From: Candidatus Parcubacteria bacterium
Lineage (GTDB): Bacteria; Patescibacteriota; Microgenomatia; Levybacterales; GWA1-39-11
Direction of reading: 5' to 3'
Assembly: GCA_003599595.1 (NCBI GenBank)
Contig: QZIP01000038.1
Coordinates: 1-57,867 of the forward strand
Length of the DNA stretch: 57,867 nt
Shown here piece by piece: positions 12,799 through 57,867 of the stretch; position 1 is the stretch's first letter; each line of letters starts with the position of its first letter. The position numbers and the translations under genes were made by a program. Below the pieces are notes generated by a model that did not search any database, was not told the DNA's origin, and worked only from the letters and a program-made list of their open reading frames with translations.

Positions 12799-14304
12799 AT
12801 GTCAATTTTGAAGAAAAACAAAAACTTACTTATTATTTTTGCCATTTTTACCGTCCTTTATTTCTTTACCCGCCTCTTCAATGTAATGGCTCTGCCAATT
12901 TTTACTGATGAAGCTATTTATACCCGTTGGAGTCAGATAGCAAGGTATGATGCCGCCTGGCGTTTTATCTCTCTAACAGATGGAAAACAACCTCTTTTTG
13001 TCTGGATAAATATGATTCTTATGCGTTTTATTTCAGATCCTCTGCTTGCTGGAAGATTAGTGTCTGTGGGTGCAGGCTTTTTTACTATGATTGGTATGTT
13101 TTTCCTTTCTTCAGAAATTTTTAAGAATAAAAAAATAGGAATTATTGGATCATTCTTGTATTTAGTTTTTCCCTTTTCTCTTGTTTATGATAGGATGGCG
13201 CTTTATGACTCTTTGGTTGCCTGCTTTGCTGTTTGGTCTCTTTATTTAGAAGTTTTGCTAATAAGACTTAAAAGACTTGATATTGCATTAATATTAGGAC
13301 TGATACTTGGTGGCGGCTTTCTAACTAAAAGTTCAGCTTTTTTCTTTGCATACCTTTTACCATTCTCACTTGTACTTTTTGATCTAGAAAAACCTAAGAG
13401 GGTAGAGAGATTATTAAAATGGGGCAGTCTTGCATTATTATCTGCATCACTTGGCTACTTTTACTATTCAGTTCTAAGACTCTCACCGTTAAGATATATG
13501 ATTAATGAAAAGAACTCAATTTTTATTTATCCTTTTTCAGAATGGATACAGCACCCTCTTAGATTCTTCCATGGAAATTTAGCTGGATTATATGATTGGC
13601 TAATTGCATATCTTGGTATCCCAATTGCATTACTTATAGTTTTTTCCTTGATAATTAGTAAGAAATTCTTTAGAGAAAAAATCCTTTTACTGCTTTGGTT
13701 TTCAATTCCTTTTGTTGCTCTTGCTCTTTTTGGAAAGACACTTTATCCGCGCTTTATTCTCTTTATGACAATGCCTCTTTTGGTACTTGCCGCCTACTCT
13801 CTTTTTGTACTTACTGAAAAATTTAAATCTAAAAAATTTAAAGCTTTGATTATAATTCTTTTTGTAGCACTAAGCCTGAGATCCGATTACTTCATAATTA
13901 CTGATATTGCCAGATCCCCAGTTCATAGGGCAGATTTAACGCAGTATGTTAACGGATGGCCGGCAGGAGGAGGAATGAAAGAAATAGTGGAGTATCTAGA
14001 TGAAAAATCAAAAAAAGGCAAGATATATGTTGCAAGTGAAGGCACATTTGGTAGTATTCCAACATATGTTATGGAGATTTACTTAGATGAGAATAAAAAT
14101 ATAGAAAAAAGAGGAATGTGGCCTCTGCCTCATGAGATACCTCAGGACCTGATAGAAAAAGCAAAGATTATGCCGGTATACTTTATATTTAATAACACTC
14201 AAGAGCCACCTGAAACAACTTGGCCAATAAAGTTAGTGGCAAAATATAATAAAGGGATTAGTAATTCTAGGATCAGCTTATATCAGGTTGTGCCAAATAA
14301 GTAA
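12799..14304 (+). CDS. GT-C family C (ArnT/PMT GT39/GT83-like) membrane glycosyltransferase, divergent member C0
   Basis: 501 aa. PIFTDEAIYTRW acidic first-loop motif, multiple TM segments, soluble C-terminal domain. Confidence 0.65.
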   Translation: MSILKKNKNLLIIFAIFTVLYFFTRLFNVMALPIFTDEAIYTRWSQIARYDAAWRFISLTDGKQPLFVWINMILMRFISDPLLAGRLVSVGAGFFTMIGMFFLSSEIFKNKKIGIIGSFLYLVFPFSLVYDRMALYDSLVACFAVWSLYLEVLLIRLKRLDIALILGLILGGGFLTKSSAFFFAYLLPFSLVLFDLEKPKRVERLLKWGSLALLSASLGYFYYSVLRLSPLRYMINEKNSIFIYPFSEWIQHPLRFFHGNLAGLYDWLIAYLGIPIALLIVFSLIISKKFFREKILLLLWFSIPFVALALFGKTLYPRFILFMTMPLLVLAAYSLFVLTEKFKSKKFKALIIILFVALSLRSDYFIITDIARSPVHRADLTQYVNGWPAGGGMKEIVEYLDEKSKKGKIYVASEGTFGSIPTYVMEIYLDENKNIEKRGMWPLPHEIPQDLIEKAKIMPVYFIFNNTQEPPETTWPIKLVAKYNKGISNSRISLYQVVPNK

Positions 14305-14327
14305 TCGCAATTCCTTTTAAACTCGCT

Positions 14328-15989
14328 ATGATCACCGATAATCTGCAGGATTTTATTCTTGACCATAAATATCTACTTCTAATAATACTGATTTCTTTTA
14401 TTCCTTTTATTGGTTTTCTGTTTAATCCTTTACTTTTTCATACCCACGATGGACTAGTTCATATTCCCAGAATCGCAGCCTATTTTAAAGCCTTAACAGA
14501 TGGACAATTTCCTGTGAGGTGGGCAAGCGGTCTTAATTATGGGTATGGAATGCCTTTATTTAACTTTATGTATGTGACTCCTTATTTTATTTCTTCAATG
14601 CTTGTTTTTATTGGCCTTGGTTTAGTTTCATCTTTCAAGATAACAATTTTTATAAGTTACCTTTTATCAGGCATATTTATGTTCAAATTCTCAAAAACCT
14701 TTTTTGAAGATGAGAAAAAAGCATTTCTTGTTGCAGTTTTTTATCAATTTTTCTCTTTTAGATTTGTTGATGCAATAACCCGTGCAAGCTTTGGAGAAGT
14801 ATATGCTTACACCTTTTTACCTCTTGTGCTTTATGGATTGACTCTGTTTTTTAAATCTGGCAGATATATTCACTTTCTTCTTGCATCGATTGCAACAGGC
14901 TTATTAATTATTTCCCATAATTCTATAAGTCTTGCATTCTTTGGAGTCTGTTTTTTGTTCGTTCTTTTCTTTGCCGGTAATAAAAAAAATATGGTTTTTG
15001 GTTTATCTGCTTTATTTACCGGTTTACTGCTTTCTTCATTTTATTGGGTCCCAGCAATATTAGAGCACAGATATACATATGGCGATCTATTTATGAAAGA
15101 CATATATTTATCCCATTTCCCACCTCTTCAAAATCTATTTATTCCTAACTTGTTTAATAATCAAATATTATATACAGAAGGAATTTCAGTTCAACTGGGA
15201 GTATTTCCTACAGCTGCAATTTTATTATCGGTCTTCTTGTTCTTTAGAAAAAAGAAAAAGCAATTAGGTTTTAATTCAAGACTATTTTTATTTTCTTTAA
15301 CCTTAATCATTATTAGTATCTTCTTTATGCAGCCTGTTTCAGGATTTTTTTGGCAAAATATCTCTCTTCTTAGGCAGTTTCAATTTCCCTGGAGACTTTT
15401 ATCTGTCTGTGGCTTTGCGGTATCTCTTCTTGCAGTAAATTTTTTGCTAATTCCCTTCTTTAAAAAGAAAAAAGTTTTTATTCTGCTTATTGTCTTGGTT
15501 GTTATTTCTAATTACTTTTATTGGCAGCCAAATCTTGGAGTGGATAAAATTGATGAAAAATATTACTGGAATTTTCCACTTAATACTACTTATTATGGAG
15601 AGACAGACATAATTTGGTCAGAGGGTCCTAAAAAATTATACCCAAAACAGAGAGTAGAGGTCATATCAGGTAAAGGAGAAGTGTTTGACTATGACCAGAA
15701 ATCAAATATAAAAAACTACAAAGTAGAGGCAGTCACAAATATAGTCCTGGTAGATCATACGCAATTTTTTCCCGGCTGGAAAGTTTATGTAGACAAAAAA
15801 GAAGTGCCAATCCAGTTCCAGGATCCAAATTGGAGAGGGGAAATAACCTTTTCAGTTCCCAGAGGGAATCACATTGTACAGGTAAAATTTCAAGAAACAA
15901 AAATGAGACTTATTTCAGATGGATTGAGTCTTGTCACGTTAATATTATTAATTGCCCTTTTTCCCACATTTAGAAAACATAGAATATGA
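14328..15989 (+). CDS. GT-C-like family A (PTPS-related-type membrane protein) A1
   Basis: 553 aa. THDGLVHIPRIAAYFKALTDGQFPVRW..GYGMPLFNF, IISHNSISL, FYWVPAILEHRYT, FQFPWRLLS. C-terminal FFPGWKVYVDKKEV..GNHIVQVKF plus a TM anchor. Confidence 0.6.
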   Translation: MITDNLQDFILDHKYLLLIILISFIPFIGFLFNPLLFHTHDGLVHIPRIAAYFKALTDGQFPVRWASGLNYGYGMPLFNFMYVTPYFISSMLVFIGLGLVSSFKITIFISYLLSGIFMFKFSKTFFEDEKKAFLVAVFYQFFSFRFVDAITRASFGEVYAYTFLPLVLYGLTLFFKSGRYIHFLLASIATGLLIISHNSISLAFFGVCFLFVLFFAGNKKNMVFGLSALFTGLLLSSFYWVPAILEHRYTYGDLFMKDIYLSHFPPLQNLFIPNLFNNQILYTEGISVQLGVFPTAAILLSVFLFFRKKKKQLGFNSRLFLFSLTLIIISIFFMQPVSGFFWQNISLLRQFQFPWRLLSVCGFAVSLLAVNFLLIPFFKKKKVFILLIVLVVISNYFYWQPNLGVDKIDEKYYWNFPLNTTYYGETDIIWSEGPKKLYPKQRVEVISGKGEVFDYDQKSNIKNYKVEAVTNIVLVDHTQFFPGWKVYVDKKEVPIQFQDPNWRGEITFSVPRGNHIVQVKFQETKMRLISDGLSLVTLILLIALFPTFRKHRI

Positions 15990-18364
15990 ATAATAAAATG
16001 ACAAAAAATATTTTACCTTTTTTTGTACTTTCTCTAATTTCGGTAGTTTTCTTCTATAAAATGTTTATATTTGGACAAATTCCATTTCCTGGAGATCTAT
16101 TGGTATCGGAATATTCTCCATGGAAGTTTGAATCATATCTTGGATATAACCCAGGTTCCTACCCAAGTAAAGTTCAATATTTTGATGTTTTAAGACAGAT
16201 TTATCCCTGGAAAACAATATCAATAGAAATTCTAAAAAACGGACAAATTCCCTTATGGAATCCATATAGTTTTGCAGGTGCGCCTCTTCTTGCAAATTTT
16301 CAATCAAGCGTTTTTTACCCCCTAAATATAGTATATTTTATACTTCCACAGATTTACGGTTGGAGTTTTCTTGTTTTTTTGCAGCCTTTTCTAGCAAGCA
16401 TATTTACTTATTTTTATTGCAGGAAAATTGGAATTGGAAAAACTGCCTCACTACTGTCTTCCATTGCTTTTTCTTATTCCCTTTTTACAACAGTTTTTCT
16501 TGAGTATAATATTATTATTCAAACTGTTCTTTGGCTTCCCTTGCTTCTTTATCTTATCGAAAGGTTGATAGAAAAACTTGAAATTAAAAACATTCTATTC
16601 TTTATTGCAGCCACTATGTTTTCTTTTCTTGCAGGCCACATTCAGATTTTTGGCTTCCTGGTAATATTTGTTTTTCTTTATGTTTTTTCTAGAATAGTTT
16701 GTTTCAATGCCGCAAGAAGATACAAGATCAAAACATTAAGTGTCATTTCTTTATCAATATTTTTTGCTCTTGGAATATCTTCTTTTCAGCTTCTGCCTAC
16801 TATTGAGCTGATCAATAATTCTGCAAGAGTATCTCAGTCTTACCAATTTTTAATAGAAAAACTACTTATACAGCCGGACCAGTTAATTCTCTTTTTATCT
16901 CCTGATTTTTTTGGAAACCCAGCTGCTATAAATTATTTATTATCTGATTCTTACCCGGGGAATGCCGTTTATATAGGGCTTATTCCAGTAATCTTTTCTT
17001 TCTTCTCAATGTTTTTGTTCAGGAAAAAATACTTAGTCAAATTTTTTATAACATCTACATTCATATTAGCCTTTTTTATTACAAGATCTCCTTTTACAGA
17101 ATTTTTCTATTCTTTTGAAATTCCACTATTTTCTACAGGGTCTCCTACAAATTCCATTTTTCTTCTTAGCTTTTGTTTGAGTATTCTTGCAGGTTTTGGG
17201 GTAGATCACTGGATTAGTAATAAGTCTAGAAAGCATCTTTTAATTCTTGCCGCCTTTCTTGTAATATTTATATTTGTTTGGCTGCTAAAATCTGCCTTAT
17301 ACTCTTCAGTCTCTACAAAAAACCTTCTTTATTCAAGTCTTTTGTTTTTTTCAATACTACCTCTTTTTATATTTGGTTCAAGATTCAACAAGAAAAAATT
17401 GACATCAATTTTGTTTATTGGAATTTTAATTATAGATCTATTTTATTTCTTTCAAAAATTTAATCCATTTGTTCCTAAGGATTTTGTTTTTCCTTCTCAA
17501 GAAGTTTTTGGATTTCTCAAAGACAAAGCAGAGACAAACCGTTTTTGGGCTTTTGGTCATACTGCAATACTTTCCAACACTACTGCTCAGTATTCCTTGT
17601 TCCATCCAGAAGGATACGATCCACTATATCCACGTGCCTATGGAGAATTTATCCAGAGTTCAAAAGACGGAAAAATAGTAACTAGCTTTGATAATTCAAG
17701 CCGCTCAGATGCTTTCCTTGCCCCAAGTTTTGGAGAGGAGGATTTCTCAAAAAACCAGAATAGGCTTAAGGTCTTAGATTTGTTAGCCGTTAAATATATT
17801 GTAGACAGAGCAGAAAATGGTAGCACGCAAAAAACATTTCCAGAGAATAGATTTAAAACAATTTATCAAAAAGACGGTTGGACAATACAGGAAAATCTAA
17901 AAGCGCTACCCCATATGTTTTTAGCAAATGATTATGTCATCTATAAAAACAATCAGGAATTTGAAAAAATATTTTTTTCTGAAGATTTTAACCCCCGGAA
18001 GACAGTATTGTTAAAAGAAAGTTTAATGAATTTTAATCTCACAAAAAATCAAGAAGCAAAGCTTGACCTGTTATCTTATACTCCCAACAAAATTACCTTA
18101 AATTCAGAAAGTAAAGAGAATAAAATATTGTTTGTTTCAGACACTTATTATCCGGGATGGAGGGCACTTATTGACAATGAAGAAGTAAAAATTTATAAAG
18201 CAAACCACGCTTTTAAAGCAGTAATAGTTCCTAAAGGAAAACATAGGGTTATACTTGAATACTGGCCTGGATCCTTTAATTTAGGTTATAAAATATCTAT
18301 AATAAGCTTATTGTTGCTTTTTGCACTCATTATGATTTCTAGAAAAAAGTTATATGCAAAATAA
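15986..18364 (+). CDS. GT-C family B (YfhO-like) membrane glycosyltransferase B1
   Basis: 792 aa. IYPWK..GQIPLWNPYSFAGAPLLANFQSSVFYPLN, PDFFGNP. C-terminal YYPGWRALIDNEEVKIYKAN..GKHRVILEY plus a TM anchor. ATGA overlap with A1. Confidence 0.7.
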   Translation: MNNKMTKNILPFFVLSLISVVFFYKMFIFGQIPFPGDLLVSEYSPWKFESYLGYNPGSYPSKVQYFDVLRQIYPWKTISIEILKNGQIPLWNPYSFAGAPLLANFQSSVFYPLNIVYFILPQIYGWSFLVFLQPFLASIFTYFYCRKIGIGKTASLLSSIAFSYSLFTTVFLEYNIIIQTVLWLPLLLYLIERLIEKLEIKNILFFIAATMFSFLAGHIQIFGFLVIFVFLYVFSRIVCFNAARRYKIKTLSVISLSIFFALGISSFQLLPTIELINNSARVSQSYQFLIEKLLIQPDQLILFLSPDFFGNPAAINYLLSDSYPGNAVYIGLIPVIFSFFSMFLFRKKYLVKFFITSTFILAFFITRSPFTEFFYSFEIPLFSTGSPTNSIFLLSFCLSILAGFGVDHWISNKSRKHLLILAAFLVIFIFVWLLKSALYSSVSTKNLLYSSLLFFSILPLFIFGSRFNKKKLTSILFIGILIIDLFYFFQKFNPFVPKDFVFPSQEVFGFLKDKAETNRFWAFGHTAILSNTTAQYSLFHPEGYDPLYPRAYGEFIQSSKDGKIVTSFDNSSRSDAFLAPSFGEEDFSKNQNRLKVLDLLAVKYIVDRAENGSTQKTFPENRFKTIYQKDGWTIQENLKALPHMFLANDYVIYKNNQEFEKIFFSEDFNPRKTVLLKESLMNFNLTKNQEAKLDLLSYTPNKITLNSESKENKILFVSDTYYPGWRALIDNEEVKIYKANHAFKAVIVPKGKHRVILEYWPGSFNLGYKISIISLLLLFALIMISRKKLYAK

Positions 18365-20042
18365 AGCTAGATTATTAATCTTAATTTTTATATTTTTAAT
18401 AGCCTTTATCTTGCGTTTTTACAAACTGGGTGAAGTTCCTTTTGGCTTCTATCAAGATGAATCAGCAATAGGCTACAACGCATACTCAATAATTGAAACA
18501 GGAAAAGATGAGTACGGGGAAAATTTACCCTTATACTTTAAGTCTTTTGGAGACTATAAACTTCCTGTTTATATTTACCTGGATACTATTCCAATAAAGC
18601 TTTTTGGTCTTAATGAATTTGCCGTCCGTTTTCCCTCTGCTTTTTTTGGATTCTTATCTGTTGTAGTTTTCTACTTTTTTGTTAAAGAATTCACAAGAGA
18701 TAAGAATCTTTCACTTGTTGCTGTTGGGTTATTTGCTTTAAATCCTTGGTCTTTGCACTATAATAGGGCAACGTTTGAGGTAAGTATTTCACTGTTTTTG
18801 TTTCTGCTGGGAGGGCTAATTCTTCAAAAAGCCTTCAATGGTGGATCAAAAGGAAAATTTGCATCAGGAACATTATTGTTTATAATCAGTCTTTATTCCT
18901 ATAATCTCACCAGGCTTTTATCTCCCGCTTTTTATCTCTTGCTCTTAATATTAAATATCAAAAAAATTAAAAACATCTCAAAAACTGAAATAATTATAAC
19001 ATCATTTATCTCAGTGGTAATGCTTGTTCCCTTTGTTAAGACGCTATTGGCAAGTGGAGGAATATCTTCTGCATCAGGAACATTAATTTTTTCAAGCGCT
19101 TCTGTTCTTGCCCCAATGATTGAACTTAGAAGTTATTTTGTAGATGTGCCGTTATCAAAATTTTTCTTTAATACTCCAGAGCTTATATTTATTAAATATC
19201 TGCAAAATATTATTTCCTATTTTTCTCCAGCATTTTTCTTTATATCGGGCTCATCGCACGGGAATCACGGAATCGGCAACATTGGACAGTTGTATTTGTT
19301 TGAGTTTCCTCTTGTGATTCTTGGATTAATTAAAATCGTAAAAGAAAAAAGCTCAAAATACAATTTATTCATATTTTGGGCTCTAATTGTTATTATGGCG
19401 GCAAGCTTAACCCGTGAAGCTCCACATGCAACTAGAAGCTTCTTTCTAATTTCTTCACTGGAAGTGTTTTCAGCACTAGGTGTGCTTATTTTAATAAATT
19501 GGGCTAAATCCATAAAACCATCTTTTCTAAAAATTGGGATATCCTTGATTTTTGTAGGTTTTCTTTTCTATAACTTAATATATTATTTCTATTCTTATTA
19601 TGTCCGTTTCCCAATTTATTACGCCAAAGCTTGGCGCCTGGCAGATAAAGAAGTATCTCTATACATAAAAGAAAATGAACATAAATATAGTAAAATAATT
19701 TTTGATAGCAAAGCAGGCTTTATGTATTCTTCTCTTCTTTTTTATTCCAGGTTTAATCCATCTGAGTTTCAAGGAACCGTCCAAAGGCTTCCCGATGACT
19801 CCGAAGGTTTTAGTAAGGTGCAGTCTTTTGGGAAATATGAATTTAAAGATATTGACTGGTCAAGTTATGACAAGCCTGGAGAGAAGGTACTGTATGTCAC
19901 CACGACAGAAGGAAAGCCGCTTGAAGTTCCACCTTTAAAGGCTGTTTATTATCCAAAAAAACCGGTTGTATTTTCCCTGGGACAGGAGATTATCCAGTTC
20001 CCAATAGAGGAAATTGCCTATGTACTTGTTGAAAAAAAATAA
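18354..20042 (+). CDS. GT-C family C (ArnT/PMT GT39-like) C1
   Basis: 562 aa. LRFYKLGEVPFGFYQDESAIGYNAYSI, NPWSLHYNRATFE, REAPHATRSFF. 11-nt overlap with B1. Confidence 0.75.
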   Translation: MQNKARLLILIFIFLIAFILRFYKLGEVPFGFYQDESAIGYNAYSIIETGKDEYGENLPLYFKSFGDYKLPVYIYLDTIPIKLFGLNEFAVRFPSAFFGFLSVVVFYFFVKEFTRDKNLSLVAVGLFALNPWSLHYNRATFEVSISLFLFLLGGLILQKAFNGGSKGKFASGTLLFIISLYSYNLTRLLSPAFYLLLLILNIKKIKNISKTEIIITSFISVVMLVPFVKTLLASGGISSASGTLIFSSASVLAPMIELRSYFVDVPLSKFFFNTPELIFIKYLQNIISYFSPAFFFISGSSHGNHGIGNIGQLYLFEFPLVILGLIKIVKEKSSKYNLFIFWALIVIMAASLTREAPHATRSFFLISSLEVFSALGVLILINWAKSIKPSFLKIGISLIFVGFLFYNLIYYFYSYYVRFPIYYAKAWRLADKEVSLYIKENEHKYSKIIFDSKAGFMYSSLLFYSRFNPSEFQGTVQRLPDDSEGFSKVQSFGKYEFKDIDWSSYDKPGEKVLYVTTTEGKPLEVPPLKAVYYPKKPVVFSLGQEIIQFPIEEIAYVLVEKK

Positions 20043-34620: not shown

Positions 34621-34658
34621 TGAATCCAAACCTAGAAGGTTATATAGCTATAAACGAT

Positions 34659-39907: not shown

Positions 39908-39908
39908 A

Positions 39909-46714: not shown

Positions 46715-47335
46715 TTGCTAAAGAACTTAATGAAGAAGAGTAATATCAATAACTTTACAAGAGGAACAGGAGTTCTTGAAAATCTTTTGTCAAATCTAAG
46801 GGCACAAAAAGCAAATAGTTTAATAGATAATAATTTAAGAGCCGGTAAGGTGCTGGACATCGGCTGTGGTCTTTTTCCGTATTTTCTTTCATCAACAGAA
46901 TTTAAAGAAAAATATGGAATAGATAAGTATATTTACCAAAAAGGATTCAACGATAAAGAGGTTCATTTAAAGCAAATTGACGTTGAAAATGAAAAAATCC
47001 CATTCCCAGAAGAACACTTTGATGTAGTAGTGATGCTTGCGGTATTTGAACATATTAAACCTGAAAACCTTGAATTTGTTATAGGAGAAATTTTTCGGGT
47101 TCTTAAAAAGAATGGACAACTCATTGTTACTACCCCTTCACAGTGGTCAGTTCCAGTACTTCATATACTTTCAAGAATTAATATTATTAGCAAGGTAGAA
47201 ATAGATGACCACAAAAATTCCTTTAGCGCCTTGAGTATCGCAGATCAGATTAGAAAATCAGGGTTTAATAAAGAAAAAATAAAAAAAGGATATTTTGAAT
47301 TATTTTTAAATATGTGGTTTATGGCAAGAAAATGA
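46715..47335 (+). CDS. Class I SAM-dependent methyltransferase
   Basis: VLDIGCGLFPY (motif I), DVVVMLAVFEH, LKKNGQLIVTTP. The start may be the ATG at 46730. Confidence 0.75.
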   Translation: MLKNLMKKSNINNFTRGTGVLENLLSNLRAQKANSLIDNNLRAGKVLDIGCGLFPYFLSSTEFKEKYGIDKYIYQKGFNDKEVHLKQIDVENEKIPFPEEHFDVVVMLAVFEHIKPENLEFVIGEIFRVLKKNGQLIVTTPSQWSVPVLHILSRINIISKVEIDDHKNSFSALSIADQIRKSGFNKEKIKKGYFELFLNMWFMARK

Positions 47336-50694: not shown

Positions 50695-52194
50695 ATGAAT
50701 AGAGTATTAAAGATCCTATTTTTCATTATTATTGCCTTCAATATTTTCTTTGCCTCGTGGTATGTTTTGCATAACGATATTGAATTCACATCAGAAGTAG
50801 CCCGTGATTTGTTCCTTTTGGATGAAATTTCAAAAAAGAAAATTGTCCTTATTGGGCCCAGTTCAACAACAGGGCTTTTTCATGGACCATTATGGACTTA
50901 TATTAATTATCCCGCTTATGCCATAGGCCAAGGAGATCCTGTTGTTGTAGGCTGGGGGTGGATATCATTTATTATTCTTTTTCTTATTTCTAGCTATTAT
51001 ATTGGCAAGAATCTCTTTGATTCAAGAACTGGCTATTTATTTACTCTTATGCTTTCAATTTACTCTGTCTATATTGCAAAAAATCTTTATAATCCTCATG
51101 GCGCTTTTTTTCTCGTCCCAGCTTTTTTCTTCTTTTTTATCCGCTATATAGAGACTCTAAAAGTTAAATATTTAATTATTCACGTTTTACTTACAGGTAT
51201 GATTATTCAGTTTCAGATGGCAATTGGTATTCCATTTTTAATCTTGTCATTTTTATATATTGCCTTATTAACAATAAAATCTCAAAAATACCTACATCTA
51301 CTATCTTTTTCATTAATACTTTTGACACTCAGTAATTTTTTAATTTTTAATCTTAGACATGAATCTCTTTTATCACAACAGGTAATGAAATTTATAACAT
51401 CTGGAAGTAGTGGTTATCATCATATTCTTCAAATGCTAGAACAAAGATTTAGATTTATGGTTGGTGGAGCAGAAATTTTAAGAGTAGATCCAGGCAACAT
51501 TAATTACATATTGTTCTTAATTCTTATTGTTTTTCTCGTGTTCCAGATTGTCCAAAATAAAAATAAAAAAATATATTTTAGTTTCCTATATTTCTATTTT
51601 GGATACTTAATTATTAGCAATTTAAATGGAGGTGGTCTTTTATATTTTTATCTTTTTCCACTATTTCCTTTGGTTTTTCTTATCTTCTCATCTTTTTCAA
51701 ATTCAAAATATCCAAAAGTGTTTATGGGTATATTTTTTGTAATTTTTCTTCTTAATACATTCAATGCTTTAGATTTTGATATTAAATCCTCTTATCACTC
51801 AATGGGTAAAAGTGAATGGTCATGGATGTTCTATAAAAAACTTGCTCTTGAAGTTTTTACAGGGAAAGAAGAATTTGGATATTTTGTTTATTCCCCTGAC
51901 GTTGTTGGGTATAGACCTAAGTACGCCCTTTTTTATACAGAGAAATTATATCCTCACAAAGCCATTTACTTTCAAAAAAAACCCGTCACTTATCTTATTA
52001 TCGCTCCTCCACCATCCAACAATCCTTATATGAAAGATGAGTGGTGGAGAATTAATCTTTTACACATAAATAAAAAGCCGGAATCAGTAATTAATTTTGA
52101 CAATGGGTACAAAATAGAAAAATACTTTCTATCAGAAAAAGAAATCCTTGTTCCTGTTGAGCAAGGGATTGATCCTGGCATTCATTTTAGGTAA
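50695..52194 (+). CDS. Polytopic membrane protein, possible GT-C of another family
   Basis: 499 aa, more than 10 hydrophobic segments. Acidic first loop EVARDLFLLDE and GLFHGPLWTY. No firm family call. Confidence 0.4.
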   Translation: MNRVLKILFFIIIAFNIFFASWYVLHNDIEFTSEVARDLFLLDEISKKKIVLIGPSSTTGLFHGPLWTYINYPAYAIGQGDPVVVGWGWISFIILFLISSYYIGKNLFDSRTGYLFTLMLSIYSVYIAKNLYNPHGAFFLVPAFFFFFIRYIETLKVKYLIIHVLLTGMIIQFQMAIGIPFLILSFLYIALLTIKSQKYLHLLSFSLILLTLSNFLIFNLRHESLLSQQVMKFITSGSSGYHHILQMLEQRFRFMVGGAEILRVDPGNINYILFLILIVFLVFQIVQNKNKKIYFSFLYFYFGYLIISNLNGGGLLYFYLFPLFPLVFLIFSSFSNSKYPKVFMGIFFVIFLLNTFNALDFDIKSSYHSMGKSEWSWMFYKKLALEVFTGKEEFGYFVYSPDVVGYRPKYALFYTEKLYPHKAIYFQKKPVTYLIIAPPPSNNPYMKDEWWRINLLHINKKPESVINFDNGYKIEKYFLSEKEILVPVEQGIDPGIHFR

Positions 52195-52308
52195 TATTAA
52201 TCATTGGAAATATCTTTCAATAGGCAAACTAAAAAATATTCAAATGATATAGTAATCAATAATGTATAGGTTTCTGACTCATTGCCAATGCATTTACAAT
52301 CTTTATTA

Positions 52309-53940
52309 ATGAATAAAAATAATCTTATATTTGGATTAATTATTCTCATTGCGTTTTTTTTACGTTTTTGGCAGCTTGATCAAGTTCCGTCAGGAGCTCA
52401 TGCAGATGAGGCAGACACAGCTTACTCTGCTTATAGTATTTTAAAAACAGGATTAACTCAGTACGGTACCTTTAATCCTTTAGCTTTTACAGAATTTAAT
52501 GGAGGGACCCACCCACCCTTGTATACATATTTTTTAATTCCATTTGTTAAATTTTTTGGGTTAAATATCTTTGTAGAAAGAATGCCTTCTGCAGTATTTG
52601 GAACATTGACGATTCCCATTTTTTACTTTTTATTAAAGAAAATATTGCAGTCGTCAGCTGCTGCTCTTGTTGGATCTTTCTTTCTTACAGTAAATCCGTG
52701 GTTTTTGCATATGTCTAGACAAGGACTTCTGGAATCAATAGCCGTTTTTTTCGTAGTACTAGGCATAACTCTTTTTGTATATGCAAAAGAAAAGAAATAT
52801 TTATACATATTGTCCTTTATTGCCTTTGGATTATCACTTCATGCTTATGACGCTCCTAAAATATTTGTCCCCTTGTTTTTAATTGCTCTTATTATTTATC
52901 AATATAAATCAATCATAAGAATTAAGAAATATTTTATTGCCACTTTTGTTGTTTTTGTTATCTTTTATTTACTTATGTTAAAAACTATTTTTTTGGATGG
53001 ACAAATAAATGATTATAATAAAGTAAGTCTTTTTAACACATTGTCATTAGAAAATGCAGTAAATTATGAGAGACAATATACTAGGGCTCCTCTATGGTTA
53101 AGTGGAATATTCCACAATAAAGCTACTGTTTTACTCAAACAATTAGAAACAAGTTATTTTAATATTTTTTCAATAAATTGGTTATTTATTAATGGTGAAG
53201 GAAACCTTCAGCAAGCAGTTGTAAGACACGGTCAATTCCACTTATTTGAACTCCCGCTATTTTTTGTAGGTGCTTATGCTCTGTTTAGAAAAAGGAGAAA
53301 TACTGGTCTCCTGCTCATGATTTGGTTATTATTAGCACCAATTCCAGGAGCTTTAACACAGGGAAATTATCCTTACAGGTCTGTTTTATTATTGCCGGCA
53401 CCAATTATCTTTTCATCTTATGGACTAGTGTGGTTATGGAGCTATTTAGAAAAGTTAAAACAAAAGATAATCAAAAGATTAATCCGCATTTTTATTATTT
53501 TATTAATCATAGGGTACACGTCAAGCTTTATCTTTACATACTTTTTTGATTATCCTGTTTATGCTTCTAAATGGTGGTTCAAAGAAAGAAACGAAGCATT
53601 AAATTACGCTATTTCTCTTCAAGATAAATATGACCGCATTTTTATTGATGGAGATATTGAATGGGCAGTAATGTACGCTTTCAACGGTAAGGTTTCTCCC
53701 CATATTTTTCAAAATTCATACAAAAATAAAAGCAAGTATAAAAATGAAGATGTAATCAGTATTGGTAAGTTTACCTTTGGAAGTTTTAAATCAAGGCAGA
53801 TATCTAGTCCTTCTGCATATTTCCCCAAAAACTCAATTGTATTAACTGATGAGTCTAATTTTTCTGAAGAAAAAGGAATGAAGATCTTTACAGCAGCAGA
53901 TCCTTTAGACAGAGTATATAAAATATTTGAAATAAAATAA
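52309..53940 (+). CDS. GT-C family C (GT39-like) C3
   Basis: LRFWQLDQVPSGAHADEADTAYSAYSI, NPWFLHMSRQGLE. ATG at 52309 chosen by alignment with paralog N-termini; the ORF is open from 52282. Confidence 0.7.
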   Translation: MNKNNLIFGLIILIAFFLRFWQLDQVPSGAHADEADTAYSAYSILKTGLTQYGTFNPLAFTEFNGGTHPPLYTYFLIPFVKFFGLNIFVERMPSAVFGTLTIPIFYFLLKKILQSSAAALVGSFFLTVNPWFLHMSRQGLLESIAVFFVVLGITLFVYAKEKKYLYILSFIAFGLSLHAYDAPKIFVPLFLIALIIYQYKSIIRIKKYFIATFVVFVIFYLLMLKTIFLDGQINDYNKVSLFNTLSLENAVNYERQYTRAPLWLSGIFHNKATVLLKQLETSYFNIFSINWLFINGEGNLQQAVVRHGQFHLFELPLFFVGAYALFRKRRNTGLLLMIWLLLAPIPGALTQGNYPYRSVLLLPAPIIFSSYGLVWLWSYLEKLKQKIIKRLIRIFIILLIIGYTSSFIFTYFFDYPVYASKWWFKERNEALNYAISLQDKYDRIFIDGDIEWAVMYAFNGKVSPHIFQNSYKNKSKYKNEDVISIGKFTFGSFKSRQISSPSAYFPKNSIVLTDESNFSEEKGMKIFTAADPLDRVYKIFEIK

Positions 53941-53942
53941 TC

Positions 53943-55677
53943 CTAGTTAAAACTTGTGATAAATTTTTCACAAAACAATTTTTCTGACAATCTTTCAACC
54001 TCTAAGTCGTTCAGCCCAATGCCTATAGGGTATCTATTTAGCATGTATTTATTACAAACTTTGTCATTAAATATTTTATAGATCTCTCCTCCATCTGATA
54101 ATTGACTAATGCTTAAATTCTTTGAAAGAGAACTTGTAGACTTGCACTTGTTGTCAGGAAGAGTGATGATTGTATAATTCAAGGGCAAAGATTCTTTAGG
54201 GCAAAGAGAAACCTTAAAATTTTTATAATCATAATTACTCCTTTTTACTACAGAAGAGATTTCACTTACTGTTTTCCTACTAAGCATATTGTTATAGAAT
54301 AAATACTGCTTAAATAATGGTGGAATTGAACTTTCTAAACTATGATCAATTAGAACAACGTTTTGATTATTATCCGATGCAAGACTGATGTATTTAGAAA
54401 GTATTCTTCCGCTAAATCCAAAACCTTCAGAGTTGTATAGGGGATTTTGAAGCAAATATATATGTAGGAAATTAGAAAGAGAAATAGCGTAAAGAAAAAT
54501 AACACCAAAAACAATAATGGATTTTAAATATCCCTTGAATAAGTTTATAGAAAAATAAATTCCATACCCCGTTATTAATAATAGGGTTGGGAATAGAAGA
54601 AAAGAGCGTGTGGCATAGCTCACCCCCACAGTGCTTAATACTGTAGGTAGGGGGGGAAATCAAGACAATAGCAAATAGTAAGAGACTTGCTTTACGGTGG
54701 TACTTAAAAAGCGAATATGCACCAATAATTAGAAATATTACATCTATATAAAAGAATAGACCATGATTCCACACGGAAAATGTAGATCTTCCATCTCCAT
54801 ATAGAAATAGTAATTGAGGTGAAAAAGCTCCATAGTATTTTTCCAAAGAGTATTTTAGGTAAGTAGAAATCTTATTTTCCAATAAATTATTTATGGGAGA
54901 TTCAATCGATAGCTTCCGCTCTTTATTAACTCTTTGTTCAATTGAATAGTGAAAAGGTGTTGATATTTCTGCTGTTCTTGATGATCCTGGCTGAAAAACC
55001 GAGAAGAATAAATAGTGAGCCATAATGCCTAAAGACATAAGAAGAATAAAAATATATACCTTTGTATACCTCTTCTTATTTATATATTTCCATGAAAAGA
55101 GGATAATTATAATTGAGAATGGAAGAAAGACTATTTTAGAACCAATATAAGAAAAGAATGCTAAAAACAGTAGCGGAATAGCAAGTAGAAGCATATGTCT
55201 TTTTGCATAAAGCAATACAAGAAGGGAAGAAAAATAAAAGAAGGAAGAGATAGGAGAATCAAAAGCCGTACGGCCGAAATATATCATCCAGGGATTAATT
55301 GCTGCAAGTAGTCCTATTGCTATAGCTTGTGGCTTTCCAAAGAGCTTTTTTGCAATAAAATACAAGACAAGTACAAGCATCGTATTAATAAAAACATATG
55401 GAAGTCTTGCATAGAAGAGAGAAAAAGGAAAAATACCAATAATTGGGGCAATAAAAACATATGGAAGCTCGGCTTTGGGATATTCCAAAGGAGGCGGCTT
55501 AAGACTAAGGGGGTTCCATGTTCCACTTATATCACTTCCACTCAGAAAGAGTGCCTTAGCATTGAAGACATAATCAAGTTCATCATCGCTTATGCCTGTT
55601 GGAATCTTGTCTAGCCACAATAATCTTAAAGACAATGATAAGATTAGTATTATGATTATAGGTAGATATCTTGTCAC
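53943..55677 (-). pseudogene. GT-C family C (GT39-like) C4, split by a frameshift at a C7 homopolymer
   Basis: The N-terminal ORF 54472-55677 (LRLLWLDKIPTGISDDELDY) loses paralog similarity after ..AIVLISPP. ORF 53943-54629 resumes with VGVSYATRSFLLFPTLLLITGYG. Removing one C from C7 (plus-strand G7 at 54650-54656) gives LISPLPTVLSTVGVSYATRSF, colinear with the paralogs. Confidence 0.8.
54650..54656 (-). repeat. C7 (plus-strand G7) homopolymer at the frameshift point
   Basis: TAGGGGGGGAAAT on the plus strand. G/C runs are rare in this AT-rich window: the only others I noted are two C6 runs (near 21600 and 31712). Confidence 0.9.
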
Positions 55678-55731
55678 AATTAAACTTTATGTGTATTATA
55701 ATATACTTAATATAGTTTAGCATATTGATGT

Positions 55732-57435
55732 ATGAGTAGAAAATATATTCTAATATTAATTATCCTTCTTGCATTTATATTACGTTTTTATCAAATATCA
55801 AACATTCCCCCTTCTCTTACTTGGGATGAAGCGGCGTGGGGCTATAATGCATATTCATTAGGAATTAATGGAAGAGATGAGTTCGGAAAATTTCTACCCA
55901 TAACTTACATTGAGTCTTTTGGCGACTTTAAGCCCCCTCTATATGCTTATTTGTCAATTTTACCAATAAAATTGTTTGGCCTTAATGAATTTTCTGTAAG
56001 ATTTGCATCTGCCTTTTTAGGAACATTAACGGTTTTATTGACATATTTTCTAACAAAACAAATATTTTCGCAAAAATCACAGTTACTTGATATTTGGCAT
56101 TTGAAATTTGGAATTCCAGAAGTAGCATCACTACTTCTGGCTATCTCTCCTTGGCATATTCTTCTATCCCGTGCTGCTTTTGAAGCTAACGTTGCCACTT
56201 TTTTTATAGTCCTTGGAGTATTGTTGTTTTTTATCTCTACTCAAAACACCAAGGGCGCATCTTCAATCTCATTAATTCCACTTTGGATATGGAGACGTAT
56301 TAACACATCGGGAGGCTTGTTCTTGCTTTCAGTGCTATCATTTACCGCATCTATGTATACTTTTAATACTGCACGTGTTGTTGTTCCACTTTTGGTTTTT
56401 GGTCTTATTACCGGAAAAAGAAAAGCACTCCTAAATATAAAGAAACAAGTATTCATAGCCGCAGTAATCGGATTTATTATCTTTCTTCCTTTAGGACTAT
56501 TTCTTAAAACACCTCAGGCTCAGCTAAGATTCCAAGAGGTCAATATTTTTTCTGATCCTTCTGTTATTGAAAGATCCAATCAGCAGATAAAAAATGACAA
56601 TAATGCTTTTTGGTCAAAAATAATTCACAATAGAAGGCTGGCTTATTCTGTAGAATTTCTAAGGCATTACTTTGACAACCTTAACCCCTCATTCCTCTTC
56701 TTTAAAGGTGATGGTAACCCAAAATTTTCTACACAAGACATAGGTCAAATGTATGTTTGGGAACTCCCATTCTTTATATTCGGTTTTCTTTATCTGTTTA
56801 GAAATAGGCAAGGAAATTGGTGGATTGTTCCTTACTGGTTATTGATTGCAATCTTGCCTGCTGCAACAGCCAGGGAAACACCTCATGCTCTTAGAATAGA
56901 AGCTGCTTTGCCAACATTTCAAATAATAACTGCTTATGGATTATTCCAAATAATTTCAAATTTCAAATTTCAAATTTCAAATTTCAAATTAAATTATCTA
57001 TTGCCAAGTATTGTTTTTGTATTAGCATTATTTAATTTGGCATATTTCATGCATAATTATTTTGTTCATTACCCGCGGGAATTCTCAGGAGAGTGGCAAT
57101 ATGGTTATAGGGAAGCAATAAATTATGCAAAGAGTGTTGAAGATCAGTATAGCAATATTTATTTAACAGACAGTCTTGGCAGACCATATATATACACTCT
57201 TTTCTATACTCAGTACGATCCTAATAAATTCTTACAGGAAGCAAAAATAGAGAGAGAAGTTTTTGGTTTTGTAAAAGTTAAAAATTTTGGAAAATACACT
57301 TTTGAGAAAACACAAGAACCCTCTGTAAATACATTATTTATTGATAGACCAGGCAATGTTCCTGGAGGAGCAAATATATTAAAAGAATTTTATCTATTAA
57401 ATGGTGAAAAAATATTAACAGCCTACACAATATAA
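55732..57435 (+). CDS. GT-C family C (GT39-like) C5
   Basis: 567 aa. LRFYQISNIPPSLTWDEAAWGYNAYSL, SPWHILLSRAAFE, RETPHALRIEAALP. Contains an in-frame heptamer array. Confidence 0.75.
   Translation: MSRKYILILIILLAFILRFYQISNIPPSLTWDEAAWGYNAYSLGINGRDEFGKFLPITYIESFGDFKPPLYAYLSILPIKLFGLNEFSVRFASAFLGTLTVLLTYFLTKQIFSQKSQLLDIWHLKFGIPEVASLLLAISPWHILLSRAAFEANVATFFIVLGVLLFFISTQNTKGASSISLIPLWIWRRINTSGGLFLLSVLSFTASMYTFNTARVVVPLLVFGLITGKRKALLNIKKQVFIAAVIGFIIFLPLGLFLKTPQAQLRFQEVNIFSDPSVIERSNQQIKNDNNAFWSKIIHNRRLAYSVEFLRHYFDNLNPSFLFFKGDGNPKFSTQDIGQMYVWELPFFIFGFLYLFRNRQGNWWIVPYWLLIAILPAATARETPHALRIEAALPTFQIITAYGLFQIISNFKFQISNFKLNYLLPSIVFVLALFNLAYFMHNYFVHYPREFSGEWQYGYREAINYAKSVEDQYSNIYLTDSLGRPYIYTLFYTQYDPNKFLQEAKIEREVFGFVKVKNFGKYTFEKTQEPSVNTLFIDRPGNVPGGANILKEFYLLNGEKILTAYTI
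56954..56988 (+). repeat. Perfect heptanucleotide array (TTTCAAA)x5 inside the GT39 CDS
   Basis: Five exact tandem 7-mers encoding ISNFKFQISNFK. Confidence 0.9.
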
Positions 57436-57438
57436 AAT

Positions 57439-57867
57439 ATGTCAAAAAAAATTGAAATAATAACATTTGTCATAATTGTCGCCATTGCCGCATTGTTAAG
57501 GCTTTATCAGATTGGAAATGTTCCTCCATCTCCTGACTGGGATGAAGTATCATTAGGTTACAATGCCTACTCAATAATGCTTACGGGAAGAGATGAATAT
57601 GGAGAACTGCTTCCTGTTATAATGCGCTCTTTTGATGATTACAAACCCGCTCTTTATTCGTATTTTATTATTCCCTTTATTAAGATTTTCGGACTCAATA
57701 CAATATCTGTCCGCTTGCCATCGGTTGTGTTTGGAATAATTGCGGTTATAGCAACTTACTTCTTAACAAAAGAACTATTTAAAAATTCGAATATTAAATT
57801 TGAAATTTGCCTGCCCCGTTTATTTGCGAAGCAAATTTTTCGGGGGAATTTGAAATTAGAAATTCCA
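57439..57867 (+). CDS. GT-C family C (GT39-like) C6, 3'-partial (runs off the window)
   Basis: LRLYQIGNVPPSPDWDEVSLGYNAYSI..SVRLPSVVFGIIAVIATYFLTKELF. Open to the end of the window. Not in the ORF track because it has no stop. Confidence 0.75.
   Translation, partial: MSKKIEIITFVIIVAIAALLRLYQIGNVPPSPDWDEVSLGYNAYSIMLTGRDEYGELLPVIMRSFDDYKPALYSYFIIPFIKIFGLNTISVRLPSVVFGIIAVIATYFLTKELFKNSNIKFEICLPRLFAKQIFRGNLKLEIP
57814..57845 (+). repeat. GC-rich nested hairpin with a GCGAAGCAA core inside the C6 CDS
   Basis: CCCCG-TTT-ATTTGC-GAA-GCAAAT-TTTT-CGGGG, flanked by AATTTGAAATT repeats and translated as ..CLPRLFAKQIFRG.. Confidence 0.65.

Follow-up and report, generated by a model that had tools for sequence, protein, structure and literature searches.

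The 57,867-nucleotide contig QZIP01000038.1 (assembly GCA_003599595.1, Candidatus Parcubacteria bacterium), whose full length is called the window here, carries an array of genes for membrane glycosyltransferases of the GT-C type; the array runs from 10.5 kb to the window end and is coding almost throughout on the + strand, and the G+C content of the window is about 32%. In the 47.3 kb of the array (10555-57867) we counted 19 GT-C-type genes, which cover 68.5% of the bases, a tally that is far beyond chance. These genes comprise five of the PTPS_related family (family A), four of the YfhO family (family B), eight of PMT/PMT_2 type, one of which is frameshifted at a run of seven G residues (G7) and one truncated by the window end, and two that are GT87/MptA_B-like. 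Interspersed among them are three DPM1/ArnC/GtrB-like GT2 genes, four GT2 genes of other types, two GT4 genes, and single genes for a Wzx-type flippase, a methyltransferase, OtsA and a DUF5652 protein (Table 1). The array shows a strong strand bias (30/33 genes on the same strand) and an operon-like packing in which many starts overlap the previous stop by 1-56 nt; the longest intergenic gaps measure 206-264 bp. Scans for sigma-70 promoters and intrinsic terminators between 10 and 50 kb gave counts equal to those of shuffled controls and hence no map of transcription units. The sole strong terminator-like structure within the array is a hairpin with a 12-bp stem (33312-33338, + strand), located in the 96-bp gap between a YfhO gene that ends at 33251 and a GT2 gene that starts at 33348.

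Gene families were defined by all-against-all BLASTP comparison of the 39 open reading frames (ORFs) of at least 150 aa, together with Pfam scans. For 15 of the 19 GT-C genes the Pfam score exceeds the gathering threshold; a sixteenth, the frameshifted PMT-type gene, falls narrowly below it (25.7 vs 26.1), and the other three were classed through the annotation of their orthologues. A scan of GTDB species representatives found 531 relatives, and the ORFs of the best 80 loci were annotated against the window proteins; further gene contexts come from orthologues of window proteins (loci labelled L). A crude hydropathy scan gave 8-12 transmembrane segments in 15 of the 17 complete, intact GT-C genes, with 55732-57435 (four segments) and 45458-46678 (six) as exceptions, and seven plus two segments in the halves of the frameshifted gene. 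Directly after the first transmembrane segment lies an acidic motif, which reads 'DE' in PMT-type proteins, '(H/D)D' in family A, 'PxPxD' in family B and 'HD' in 45458-46678; the exceptions are 42976-45471, which has Asn at the position of that Asp, and 50695-52194, in which no clear motif is seen. The loop that holds this motif is placed outside the membrane because, by the positive-inside rule, Lys/Arg clusters precede the first transmembrane segment in the sequences of most members.

An earlier note on this DNA, made without database searches, had described about 19 GT-C genes in 47 kb from position 12799 onwards, and BLASTP and Pfam recover all of its gene families where it had placed them, with 18 of the 19 genes counted here inside its coordinates. 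All five proteins that it had likened to PTPS-related proteins exceed the gathering score of PF10131, all four YfhO-like proteins exceed the threshold of PF09586, seven PMT/PMT_2 genes with a conserved first-loop 'DE' motif correspond to its family C, and its three DPM1/ArnC/CsbB-like GT2 proteins have DPMS, ArnC and GtrB as best solved relatives. Pfam and NCBIfam likewise confirm its accessory genes (seven GT2, two GT4, OtsA, a Wzx-like flippase and a methyltransferase). The array start needed correction by about 2.2 kb, to 10555, because in relatives the GT2 gene 10555-11337 and the gene 11544-12749 keep their place at the head of the array, in synteny with its other genes. Of two proteins described as DUF2029-like, 45458-46678 keeps this assignment through its orthologues and 50695-52194 loses it to a PMT_2/GT39-like one; a membrane protein left unclassified, probably 21647-22945, has no predicted transmembrane helix and is soluble.

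The family A proteins (526-601 aa) share 29-35% identity with one another in BLASTP and score 29.3-45.7 bits against PF10131 (gathering threshold 26.4), in a match that spans only positions ~1-340 of the 621 model positions, while their C-terminal part resembles the C-terminus of YfhO. The family B proteins (783-831 aa, 30-34% mutual identity) match PF09586 at 65-120 bits (threshold 28.5), in two to three stretches. A profile made from the family A paralogues of the window finds the B members at E values of 1.6e-21 to 2.7e-6, and the corresponding B profile finds the A members at 9.2e-20 to 2.3e-7; these cross-matches span the transmembrane core and the last ~100 residues. With deeper alignments, hhalign connects A with B at 99.7% (E 2.4e-25, 299 columns) and A with the PMT_2-type family C at 93.8% (143 columns). 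Because the comparison of B with C is weak (86% over 39 columns), the link from B to the PMT-type enzymes goes through A as an intermediate and through the fold search described below. Families A and B are thus homologous over the transmembrane core and the C-terminal domain, and not independent of each other, with family A being a shortened YfhO protein that lacks an extracytoplasmic insert of ~250 residues. In the family A alignment of 40 sequences, Asp41 (numbering of 14328-15989) is invariant, within an 'HTHDG' motif after the first transmembrane segment. The YfhO paralogue 42976-45471 has 'PFPSN' in place of the 'PxPxD' found in the other B members and in nearly all relatives and retains the second invariant Asp (the D67 equivalent); its catalytic site may be altered or inactive.

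Tests at the level of the fold were needed, as PDB sequence searches with single A and B proteins returned no match at E <= 1. An AlphaFold2 model of 14328-15989, based on a 40-sequence alignment, reached a pLDDT of 89.9 and a pTM of 0.91, and in a Foldseek search of the PDB its ranks 1-25 were all GT-C enzymes (STT3, AglB, PglB, AftD, EmbA/B/C and ArnT), at probabilities of 0.93-1.00 and with TM-scores (TMq) of up to 0.49; the match to AftD has an rmsd of 6.0 over 423 columns. The model of the family B protein 15986-18364, built from a thin alignment, is of moderate quality (pLDDT 66, pTM 0.75); its top 18 matches were all GT-C enzymes at probabilities of at least 0.98, with TMq values of only 0.29-0.39. 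STT3 is the top structural match of both predicted models. We consider it highly improbable that A and/or B are transporters or other polytopic proteins instead of glycosyltransferases: while PTPS_related has no characterised member and major facilitator superfamily (MFS) transporters do occur in the Foldseek lists, they appear only from rank 26 (A, where an MFS protein at probability 0.25 is the first match outside GT-C) and rank 23 (B, probability <= 0.25), whereas every high-probability match is a GT-C enzyme, Pfam assigns both families to GT-C clan families, the family A profile is homologous to PMT_2-type enzymes, and the first-loop Asp is conserved in A and B. A transporter identity was accordingly rejected on the low probability of the MFS matches. 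Since Pfam families, hhalign links to each other and to PMT_2-type proteins, and model matches agree, the GT-C fold of both families is supported by prediction; the earlier note had named a position of A and B outside this fold as the main result that would overturn it, and Pfam, hhalign and AlphaFold/Foldseek all place them inside.

This placement matches the literature, where PTPS_related is listed in Pfam clan CL0111 GT-C with function unknown (PMC7801869), and YfhO and PMT_2 proteins are treated as GT-C components of Gram-positive glycosylation systems (PMC8035078). In both A and B the C-terminus forms a beta-sandwich (residues 443-521 of the family A model), and the beta-sandwiches of AftD and YfhO have been discussed as carbohydrate-binding domains (PMC8035078). 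No WWDYG-type oligosaccharyltransferase motif was found in the 19 GT-C proteins with the regular expressions [WFY]WD[WYFN]G and W[WYF]D, and membership in the canonical oligosaccharyltransferases was rejected for this reason, even though STT3 and PglB are the best structural matches.

In the alignment of family C, D35 and E36 are invariant; four full-length members score 31-47.5 bits against PF02366 PMT (vs 22.7), and the family profile matches ArnT (5ezm) at 1.4e-4. Pfam scans at E <= 0.01 found no MIR and no PMT_4TMC domain in any member. Membership in the canonical GT39 PMT enzymes was rejected for lack of the MIR domain, and family C seems better described as PMT_2/ArnT-like. The divergent member 12799-14304 is found by the family C hidden Markov model (HMM) at 6e-9 and has 'TDEA' as acidic motif after the first transmembrane segment. 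In the frameshifted gene 53943-55677, HMM positions 6-355 lie in ORF 54472-55677 and positions 359-544 in ORF 53943-54629, with the frame switching exactly at the G7 run 54650-54656 (one extra base), the window's longest homopolymer of G or C; the break may reflect an error of assembly, a pseudogene or slipped-strand switching.

Direct Pfam scans at E <= 10 gave nothing useful for 11544-12749, 45458-46678, 50695-52194 and 21647-22945, and the GT-C genes among these were therefore classed via orthologues and profile comparison. For 11544-12749, orthologues at 50-59% identity carry PF26314 MptA_B_family, and TIGR03459 (alpha-1,6-mannosyltransferase, MptA) matches at 3.1e-10 with 39.6 bits, below its cut-off of 439 bits. 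Orthologues of 45458-46678 at 61-70% identity are named 'glycosyltransferase 87 family', and the profile of this family matches GPI mannosyltransferase 1 (PIG-M, 23gx_B) at 2.8e-5; hhalign connects the two families at 96% (E 3.3e-9). PF13231 occurs in some orthologues of 50695-52194, which are annotated as 'glycosyltransferase family 39' or 'ArnT-like'. The position of this last gene varies between genomes: a homologue stands at the array head on the opposite strand in L005, and others lie among housekeeping genes, beside GreA/AspRS in L088 and beside a hydrolase and a sigma factor in L089, so that GT-C genes also occur beyond the array in Levybacteria.

The three short GT2 proteins have as top PDB relatives 5mlz (DPMS of Pyrococcus), 9bhc, 8vxh and 9hwj (ArnC) and 5ekp (GtrB), all of them enzymes for the synthesis of polyprenyl-phosphate monosaccharides, at E values of 1.7e-19 to 1.3e-10, in alignments that stop at about residue 212-229 of the solved enzymes of 322-374 aa. 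For 10555-11337 the best NCBIfam matches are PgfS and ArnC, and the best PDB matches DPMS (5mlz, 6.5e-16), ArnC and GtrB; 25039-25752 matches ArnC (9bhc, 1.5e-15) and DPMS (5mlz, 3.9e-13) over residues 6-222, and PgfS, ArnC, AglJ and PpgS in NCBIfam; 39194-39907 matches AglJ (6.2e-33), PpgS (5e-22) and DPMS (5mlz, 1.7e-19, over residues 1-214). We take these proteins, which have no transmembrane helix, to resemble a class of soluble enzymes that in other systems depend on a partner in the membrane (GacI/GacJ, human DPM1/DPM3). A candidate for such a partner or accessory subunit is the DUF5652 protein, the sole small membrane ORF in the array, in which two hydrophobic stretches can be read from the sequence and which is kept at the same spot, between GT2 and GT4 genes, in five relatives (L073, L082, L084, L086 and L087). 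The Wzx-type gene directly follows the second short GT2 gene, 25039-25752; its product matches the NCBIfam models for MOP flippases (NF007773, 1.5e-30) and for an O-glycosylation flippase (3.5e-19), with eight transmembrane segments in the crude scan, where about 12 are expected of Wzx/MOP proteins. None of the gaps in the array (largest 206-264 bp) is long enough for a GtrA-type flippase gene. A homologue of the methyltransferase is present in the related arrays L047, L051 and L087. The GT4 gene 39909-41042 is missing at this position in L070, L072, L073, L076 and L084, and OtsA, which stands here without OtsB, was rejected as a core component, being absent from all related arrays; both genes are probably genome-specific accessory insertions because of their absence from the related arrays examined.

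Table 1. Glycosyltransferase and associated genes of the array, with the match or annotation behind each assignment.
Gene product	Position	Strand	Match or annotation
GT2, DPM1/ArnC/GtrB-like, 260 aa, no transmembrane helix, first gene of the array	10555-11337	+	Glycos_transf_2 1e-28
GT-C, GT87/MptA_B-like, 401 aa, ~9 transmembrane segments	11544-12749	+	orthologues carry PF26314
GT-C, divergent PMT_2 type, 501 aa	12799-14304	+	PMT_2 9.1e-10, 39.4 bits vs 26.1
GT-C, family A	14328-15989	+	PF10131 4e-7
GT-C, family B, 792 aa	15986-18364	+	PF09586 1.2e-34
GT-C, family C	18354-20042	+	PMT 2.5e-7, PMT_2 1.5e-6; 'DE' at D35-E36
GT-C, family A	20014-21594	+	PF10131 2.2e-7, plus YfhO C-terminal match
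GT-C, family A	23190-24905	+	PF10131 4.4e-12
GT2, DPM1/ArnC/GtrB-like, 237 aa, no transmembrane helix	25039-25752	+	Glycos_transf_2 5e-27
Wzx-type MOP flippase	25739-27190	+	Polysacc_synt_3 1.5e-49
GT2, other type	27187-28134	+	Glycos_transf_2 3.8e-21; TIGR04283 and SunS-like matches
GT2, rhamnosyltransferase-like	28146-29093	+	Glycos_transf_2 5e-18; TIGR01556 1.2e-22
GT-C, family A	29038-30843	+	PF10131 3.2e-11
GT-C, family B	30843-33251	+	PF09586 2.1e-26
GT2, other type	33348-34112	+	Glycos_transf_2 1.9e-21
DUF5652 small membrane protein, 80 aa	34113-34355	-	PF18893 1.4e-20
GT4, cytoplasmic glycosyltransferase	34620-35723	+	Glycos_transf_1 2.1e-19
GT-C, family B	35763-38114	+	PF09586 6.2e-18
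GT2, other type	38253-39197	+	Glycos_transf_2 1.2e-19
GT2, DPM1/ArnC/AglJ-like, 237 aa, no transmembrane helix	39194-39907	+	Glycos_transf_2 1.7e-35
GT4	39909-41042	-	Glycos_transf_1 1.2e-20
OtsA, trehalose-6-phosphate synthase (GT20)	41182-42711	+	Glyco_transf_20 1.6e-115; TIGR02400 2.5e-122
GT-C, family B, Asn at first-loop Asp	42976-45471	+	PF09586 5.5e-21
GT-C, GT87/DUF2029-like, 406 aa	45458-46678	+	orthologues carry PF09594 and/or PF26314
S-adenosylmethionine-dependent methyltransferase	46715-47335	+	Methyltransf_23 2.3e-14, Methyltransf_11 1.1e-12
GT-C, family A	47314-49002	+	PF10131 3.3e-9
GT-C, family C	48999-50690	+	PMT_2 6.4e-8, PMT 2.3e-7
GT-C, divergent PMT_2/GT39-like, 499 aa, ~8 transmembrane segments	50695-52194	+	orthologue annotation
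GT-C, family C	52282-53940	+	PMT 2.2e-12, PMT_2 1.5e-10
GT-C, family C, +1 frameshift	53943-55677	-	family C HMM across two ORFs
GT-C, family C	55732-57435	+	PMT 7.6e-9, PMT_2 1.2e-5
GT-C, family C, N-terminal 143 aa only (window end)	57439-57867	+	PMT_2 3.4e-6, PMT 4.5e-5

GT-C enzymes use polyprenyl-phosphate sugars, made by GT2 enzymes of the DPM1/ArnC/CsbB type, to glycosylate extracytoplasmic acceptors, as in the ArnC-ArnT, CsbB-GtcA-YfhO and DPM1-PMT systems. Extracytoplasmic glycosylation driven by such donors, as the earlier note had proposed, is a reasonable reading of the gene content, supported by the GT-C fold predicted for A and B together with the DPMS/ArnC/GtrB-like GT2 proteins; the 19 GT-C enzymes may use polyprenyl-phosphate donors, to judge by their association with these three GT2 genes in the array. 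In the window, Pfam scans found no priming phosphoglycosyltransferase, no nucleotide-sugar pathway and no obvious acceptor gene, in agreement with the earlier note; a gene for an NAD-dependent epimerase follows the array in one relative.

One use of such enzymes would be protein O-glycosylation, in which PMT-/YfhO-type GT-C enzymes would move sugars from polyprenyl phosphate to Ser/Thr residues of secreted or surface proteins (S-layer, pili, adhesins), with the paralogues serving different acceptor classes or the extension of O-glycans. Family C matches PF02366 PMT besides PMT_2 and retains the DE motif of loop 1, but it lacks the MIR domain of canonical PMTs in Pfam scans. The only NCBIfam matches of family B are PgfM1 and PgfM2 of Streptococcus mutans, and the short GT2 proteins match PgfS and AglJ; the PgfM matches, however, fall far under the cut-off (36.7 bits vs 1500) and cover the C-terminal ~80 residues only. 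While the best structural neighbours of A and B (STT3, PglB and AglB) modify proteins, none of the 19 proteins has a WWDYG-type motif, and neither here nor in relatives does the array encode a candidate acceptor protein. In streptococci, glycosylation that depends on GT-C enzymes is documented for Ser/Thr-rich regions of membrane proteins (PMC12041528). The presence of GT87/MptA_B-type enzymes also counts against protein acceptors, and on balance we regard protein O-glycosylation as rather unlikely to be the function of the array.

The best 80 loci of the 531 relatives belong to Levybacteria, Gottesmanbacteria, Woesebacteria and other Patescibacteria, and the best named homologues of three array proteins come from Candidatus Levybacteria (Microgenomates group, Patescibacteria); more than 100 clusters hold an orthologue of 14328-15989 at 53-60% identity. 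The recurring order in Levybacteria is GT2-GT87-PMT_2-A-B-C-A-A-GT2-Wzx-GT2-GT2-A-B-GT2-DUF5652-GT4-B-GT2-GT2-..., as seen from Lon onwards in L001, L003 and L006 (Lon ... GT2-MptA_B-PMT_2-PTPS_related-YfhO-PMT-PTPS_related-PTPS_related-GT2-Wzx-GT2) and in L032 and L084, which form one contig collinear with the window genes from 10555 to 39907, followed by a GT87-like and a PMT-type gene. The order is also found on the complete 762,565-bp Levybacteria chromosome CP066685.1, where the array occupies positions 343,762-389,846, or ~6% of the genome, with 14 GT-C genes within 46 kb in the two loci read. In Gottesmanbacteria and Woesebacteria the array is rearranged, with three tandem PMT-type genes and a GT87-like gene divergent from A-B-C. 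Among the 35 related loci of at least 20 kb, 34 carry 7-12 GT-C genes (median 8). The array is thus a lineage-wide feature of the Microgenomates group and not peculiar to this genome; the earlier note had allowed that the locus might prove common and already characterised, and common it is, with no sign of characterisation found.

For the ORFs of relatives, the best window paralogue scores ~2x the next-best paralogue; the ratio of best to second score is 1.8-2.3 in family A (1.3 for 47314-49002), 1.6-2.0 in family B, 2.2 for the PMT-type genes 18354 and 48999, and only 1.3 for PMT-type genes like 55732. Because of this twofold difference, the duplications that gave rise to the paralogues predate the divergence of Levy-, Gottesman- and Woesebacteria, and the enzyme set, ancient and fixed, points to non-redundant steps and not to mix-and-match variation. 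The tandem PMT-type genes turn over faster. The earlier note had called the system combinatorial, a description that does not sit with each paralogue having its own orthologue in other genomes. We accordingly think it very unlikely that the paralogues are interchangeable or switchable and serve combinatorial or phase-variable diversification of surface antigens, by which phages or hosts would be evaded. A PMT-type gene is indeed broken exactly at G7, the longest G/C run in a window of 32% GC and a tract of slipped-strand type, and the 55732-like genes, with their weaker orthology (ratio 1.3), vary from two to five tandem copies across genomes; on the other hand, the homopolymer interrupts a single gene and may be an assembly error at single-read depth, 1:1 orthologues are clear in all three lineages for A, B and the majority of C, gene order is conserved, and no invertible promoters or repeats that suggest switching were seen in a search that was not exhaustive.

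Conserved gene order also bears on the proposal that the locus brings together several independent three-component decoration systems, in each of which a GT2 and one or a few GT-C enzymes would add side-chain sugars to a separate, pre-made polymer. The three DPM1-like GT2 genes are dispersed in the array, each beside GT-C genes, and in Gram-positive genomes several GT-A/GT-C pairs serve distinct polymers (PMC8035078, its Table 1); modules have also been shuffled between lineages, with homologues of 50695-52194 outside the array in other Levybacteria. Yet known systems pair the two enzymes 1:1, a ratio from which 19 GT-C enzymes per three donor synthases depart widely, gene order in the core is retained over a large evolutionary distance, and no genes for a backbone polymer (TagF/LtaS-type, ABC exporter, LCP) were seen in the array. 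Such co-location of separate systems is, in our view, unlikely.

With modest confidence we lean towards reading the array as an envelope-glycan super-operon, whose product would be one conserved complex envelope glycan or lipoglycan that is assembled stepwise outside the membrane. A lipid-anchored primer would come from the six cytoplasmic GT2/GT4 enzymes; the DPM1-like GT2 enzymes, three in number, would load as many as three different sugars onto polyprenyl phosphate; the Wzx-type protein and/or other proteins would flip the primer, the lipid-linked sugars or both; and the GT-C enzymes on the outer face would each add one specific residue or linkage, the paralogues representing non-redundant steps and not interchangeable variants. 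A single conserved product is favoured because 19 GT-C enzymes outnumber three donor synthases and because the paralogues appear to be ancient and non-redundant. As acceptor, a polymer or lipoglycan is favoured because MptA_B-type genes are present and A and B carry the C-terminal beta-sandwich; to our knowledge, GT87/MptA_B-type enzymes have been described only in the synthesis of glycolipids and polymers. That a priming phosphoglycosyltransferase is absent fits a glycolipid anchor made by GT4 enzymes, as in the mycobacterial route from phosphatidylinositol mannosides (PIM) to lipomannan (LM) and lipoarabinomannan (LAM).

Several points weigh against this reading of the array as an envelope-glycan super-operon. 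Donor sugars, acceptor and order of action are each deduced, as is the sequential action of A, B and C that the earlier note had thought possible; YfhO-/PMT-type enzymes also glycosylate proteins (PgfM1/M2 of S. mutans, actinobacterial Pmt), which makes a protein acceptor possible. The family B model, with its pLDDT of 66 and TM-scores of 0.29-0.39, is only moderate, and not all 19 GT-C enzymes may be active, given the Asn paralogue 42976-45471 and the frameshifted family C gene. The three DPM1-like GT2 proteins lack the C-terminal transmembrane helices of GtrB, ArnC and DPMS, which leaves their membrane association unexplained, and the window lacks genes for a small flippase of GtrA type, an LCP ligase, a Wzy polymerase and a priming enzyme. 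In addition, PTPS_related is a family without a characterised member (PMC7801869). Envelope-glycan assembly, protein O-glycosylation, co-located decoration and phase-variable diversification are, moreover, not mutually exclusive.

If the array makes an envelope glycan, its significance lies in what is kept: members of the Microgenomates group, with very small genomes and few biosynthetic pathways, retain an outer-face glycosylation array of ~46 kb and ~20 enzymes. That ~6% of a 0.76-Mb chromosome is spent on it would imply that a complex surface glycan is central to the biology of these organisms, perhaps for the integrity of the envelope or for attaching to hosts or partners; we know of no envelope polymer described for them. 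The five conserved PTPS_related paralogues give this GT-C family a genomic context of donor synthases, a flippase and partner GT-C enzymes, and the array, the densest natural GT-C gene cluster for which we found evidence, may serve as a compact model of division of labour among GT-C enzymes. While the array does not appear to embody a new principle and its function is read from sequence, the prediction of a major, hitherto unknown envelope glycan in Microgenomates and the testable context for PTPS_related go beyond routine annotation.

Within the array, 21647-22945 (- strand) encodes an acidic protein of 432 aa, between two PTPS_related genes that adjoin each other in all relatives. Pfam, NCBIfam and PHROGs gave no match to it, and of 1.84 billion representative clusters just 11 others did. 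None of the related loci has it, so we treat it as an insertion and not as part of the system, and it looks like a recent one. Upstream of the array, a patch between Dus and KsgA (3800-7950) is probably mobile or foreign DNA: it includes a fragment with the C-terminal 114 aa of an aminoglycoside kinase of APH(6) type (4012-4356), an IS30-like transposase (5422-6417, - strand; phrog_4646, 5e-65) and, at 6-8 kb, DNA with a G+C fraction of 0.415 and only unconvincing ORFs. In relatives the array comes almost directly after Lon, unlike in the window with this patch. Immediately upstream of the array lie a tRNA-Glu(CTC) gene (10262-10336, - strand) and a gene (8850-10127, - strand) whose product of 425 aa has a single N-terminal hydrophobic segment and matches no family; this protein is not seen beside the array in relatives. 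Rfam found this tRNA only, and PHROGs matched none of the upstream unknowns apart from the transposase. Many records of metagenome-assembled genomes (MAGs) among the GTDB representatives that carry the array are titled 'uncultured Gammaproteobacteria bacterium' (TPA_asm; L011-L013, L016, L018, L021, L025-L035 and others), and one each is titled Pacearchaeota, Limisphaerales and Parcubacteria. Some of these oddly titled records also carry a Lon 67-79% identical to that of the window; it looks as though the titles are wrong or the bins mixed.

In comparison with known systems, the array has its parts list in common with Gtr/ArnC-ArnT and with the multi-component systems of Gram-positive bacteria (CsbB-GtcA-YfhO, GtlA-GtcA-GtlB and GacI-GacJ-GacK-GacL), namely a GT2 that makes a polyprenyl-phosphate sugar, a flippase, and a YfhO-/PMT_2-type GT-C enzyme outside the membrane (PMC8035078, PMC11127046). 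A soluble short GT2 beside a Wzx-type flippase, as found here, is also seen in GacI-GacK of S. pyogenes (PMC8035078). The known systems, however, have one GT-C enzyme per synthase and add a single side-chain sugar, whereas the array has 19 GT-C enzymes for three synthases, no GtrA/GtcA-type small flippase, GT2 proteins without transmembrane helices, and five members of the uncharacterised PTPS_related family, and its host is a bacterium of the Candidate Phyla Radiation (CPR). Where YfhO acts as teichoic-acid GlcNAc transferase, as in B. subtilis, S. aureus and Listeria, it is paired with a CsbB-type membrane GT2 and a GtcA/GtrA flippase, a pairing not found in the array. The Pgf operon of S. 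mutans (PgfS-PgfM1-PgfE-PgfM2) similarly joins a GtrB-like GT2 with two YfhO-type GT-C enzymes, and PgfS, PgfM1 and PgfM2 are among the best NCBIfam matches of the short GT2 proteins and family B, but these matches are weak, partial and far below equivalog cut-offs, and Pgf has two GT-C genes, not 19, and modifies known adhesins.

A further likeness is to the mycobacterial synthesis of PIM/LM/LAM and arabinogalactan (Ppm1, PimE, MptA/B/C, EmbA/B/C, AftA-D), where many GT-C enzymes extend a lipid-anchored glycan stepwise outside the membrane and where, as proposed for the array, cytoplasmic GT4 steps precede flipping. The mycobacterial genes are dispersed over several loci of a ~4-Mb genome; the array, by contrast, forms one 47-kb block, corresponding to ~6% of the 0.76-Mb chromosome of a relative. 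MptA_B-family members in the array and AftD and Emb proteins among the structural neighbours add to the likeness, while the mycobacterial set has no YfhO/PTPS_related enzymes and sequence similarity is remote (TIGR03459, 39.6 bits vs 439). Extension outside the membrane from polyprenyl-phosphate sugars in mycobacteria is established knowledge (see also PMC7341804 and 10.1101/2019.12.22.885152).

Finally, the array shares its logic with the dolichol pathway of the endoplasmic reticulum (ER), namely cytoplasmic GT4/GT2 enzymes, a flippase candidate of the MOP superfamily, GT2 enzymes for Dol-P-sugars, and serial, non-redundant GT-C enzymes, each for the addition of one residue across the membrane. 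In the ER, ALG1/2/11 are followed by RFT1, then by ALG3/9/12/6/8/10 with donors from DPM1/ALG5, and last by STT3. As a bacterial counterpart of this eukaryotic/archaeal pathway, GT2/GT4 enzymes of the array would build a lipid-linked oligosaccharide, the MOP flippase would turn it outward, the non-redundant GT-C enzymes would extend it from three polyprenyl-phosphate sugars, and a YfhO/PTPS_related enzyme, proposed for this step because STT3, AglB and PglB are its nearest structural neighbours, would hand over the completed glycan en bloc to protein or to the wall. PTPS_related would then be a new class of oligosaccharyl- or glycan-transferase, and CPR bacteria would devote ~6% of the genome to an ER-like assembly line for glycans on the outer face. 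We hold this to be unlikely, and the array differs from the ER pathway in having no WWDYG motif and no sequence-level orthology to ALG enzymes. Compared with all of these systems, the parts of the array belong to known kinds, while its scale and composition are without a described counterpart in the literature searched: within the searchable full-text literature on Levybacteria, Microgenomates and CPR we found no paper describing such an array. What distinguishes it is the presence of 19 GT-C genes, nine of them YfhO/PTPS_related, in one conserved array of a reduced genome.

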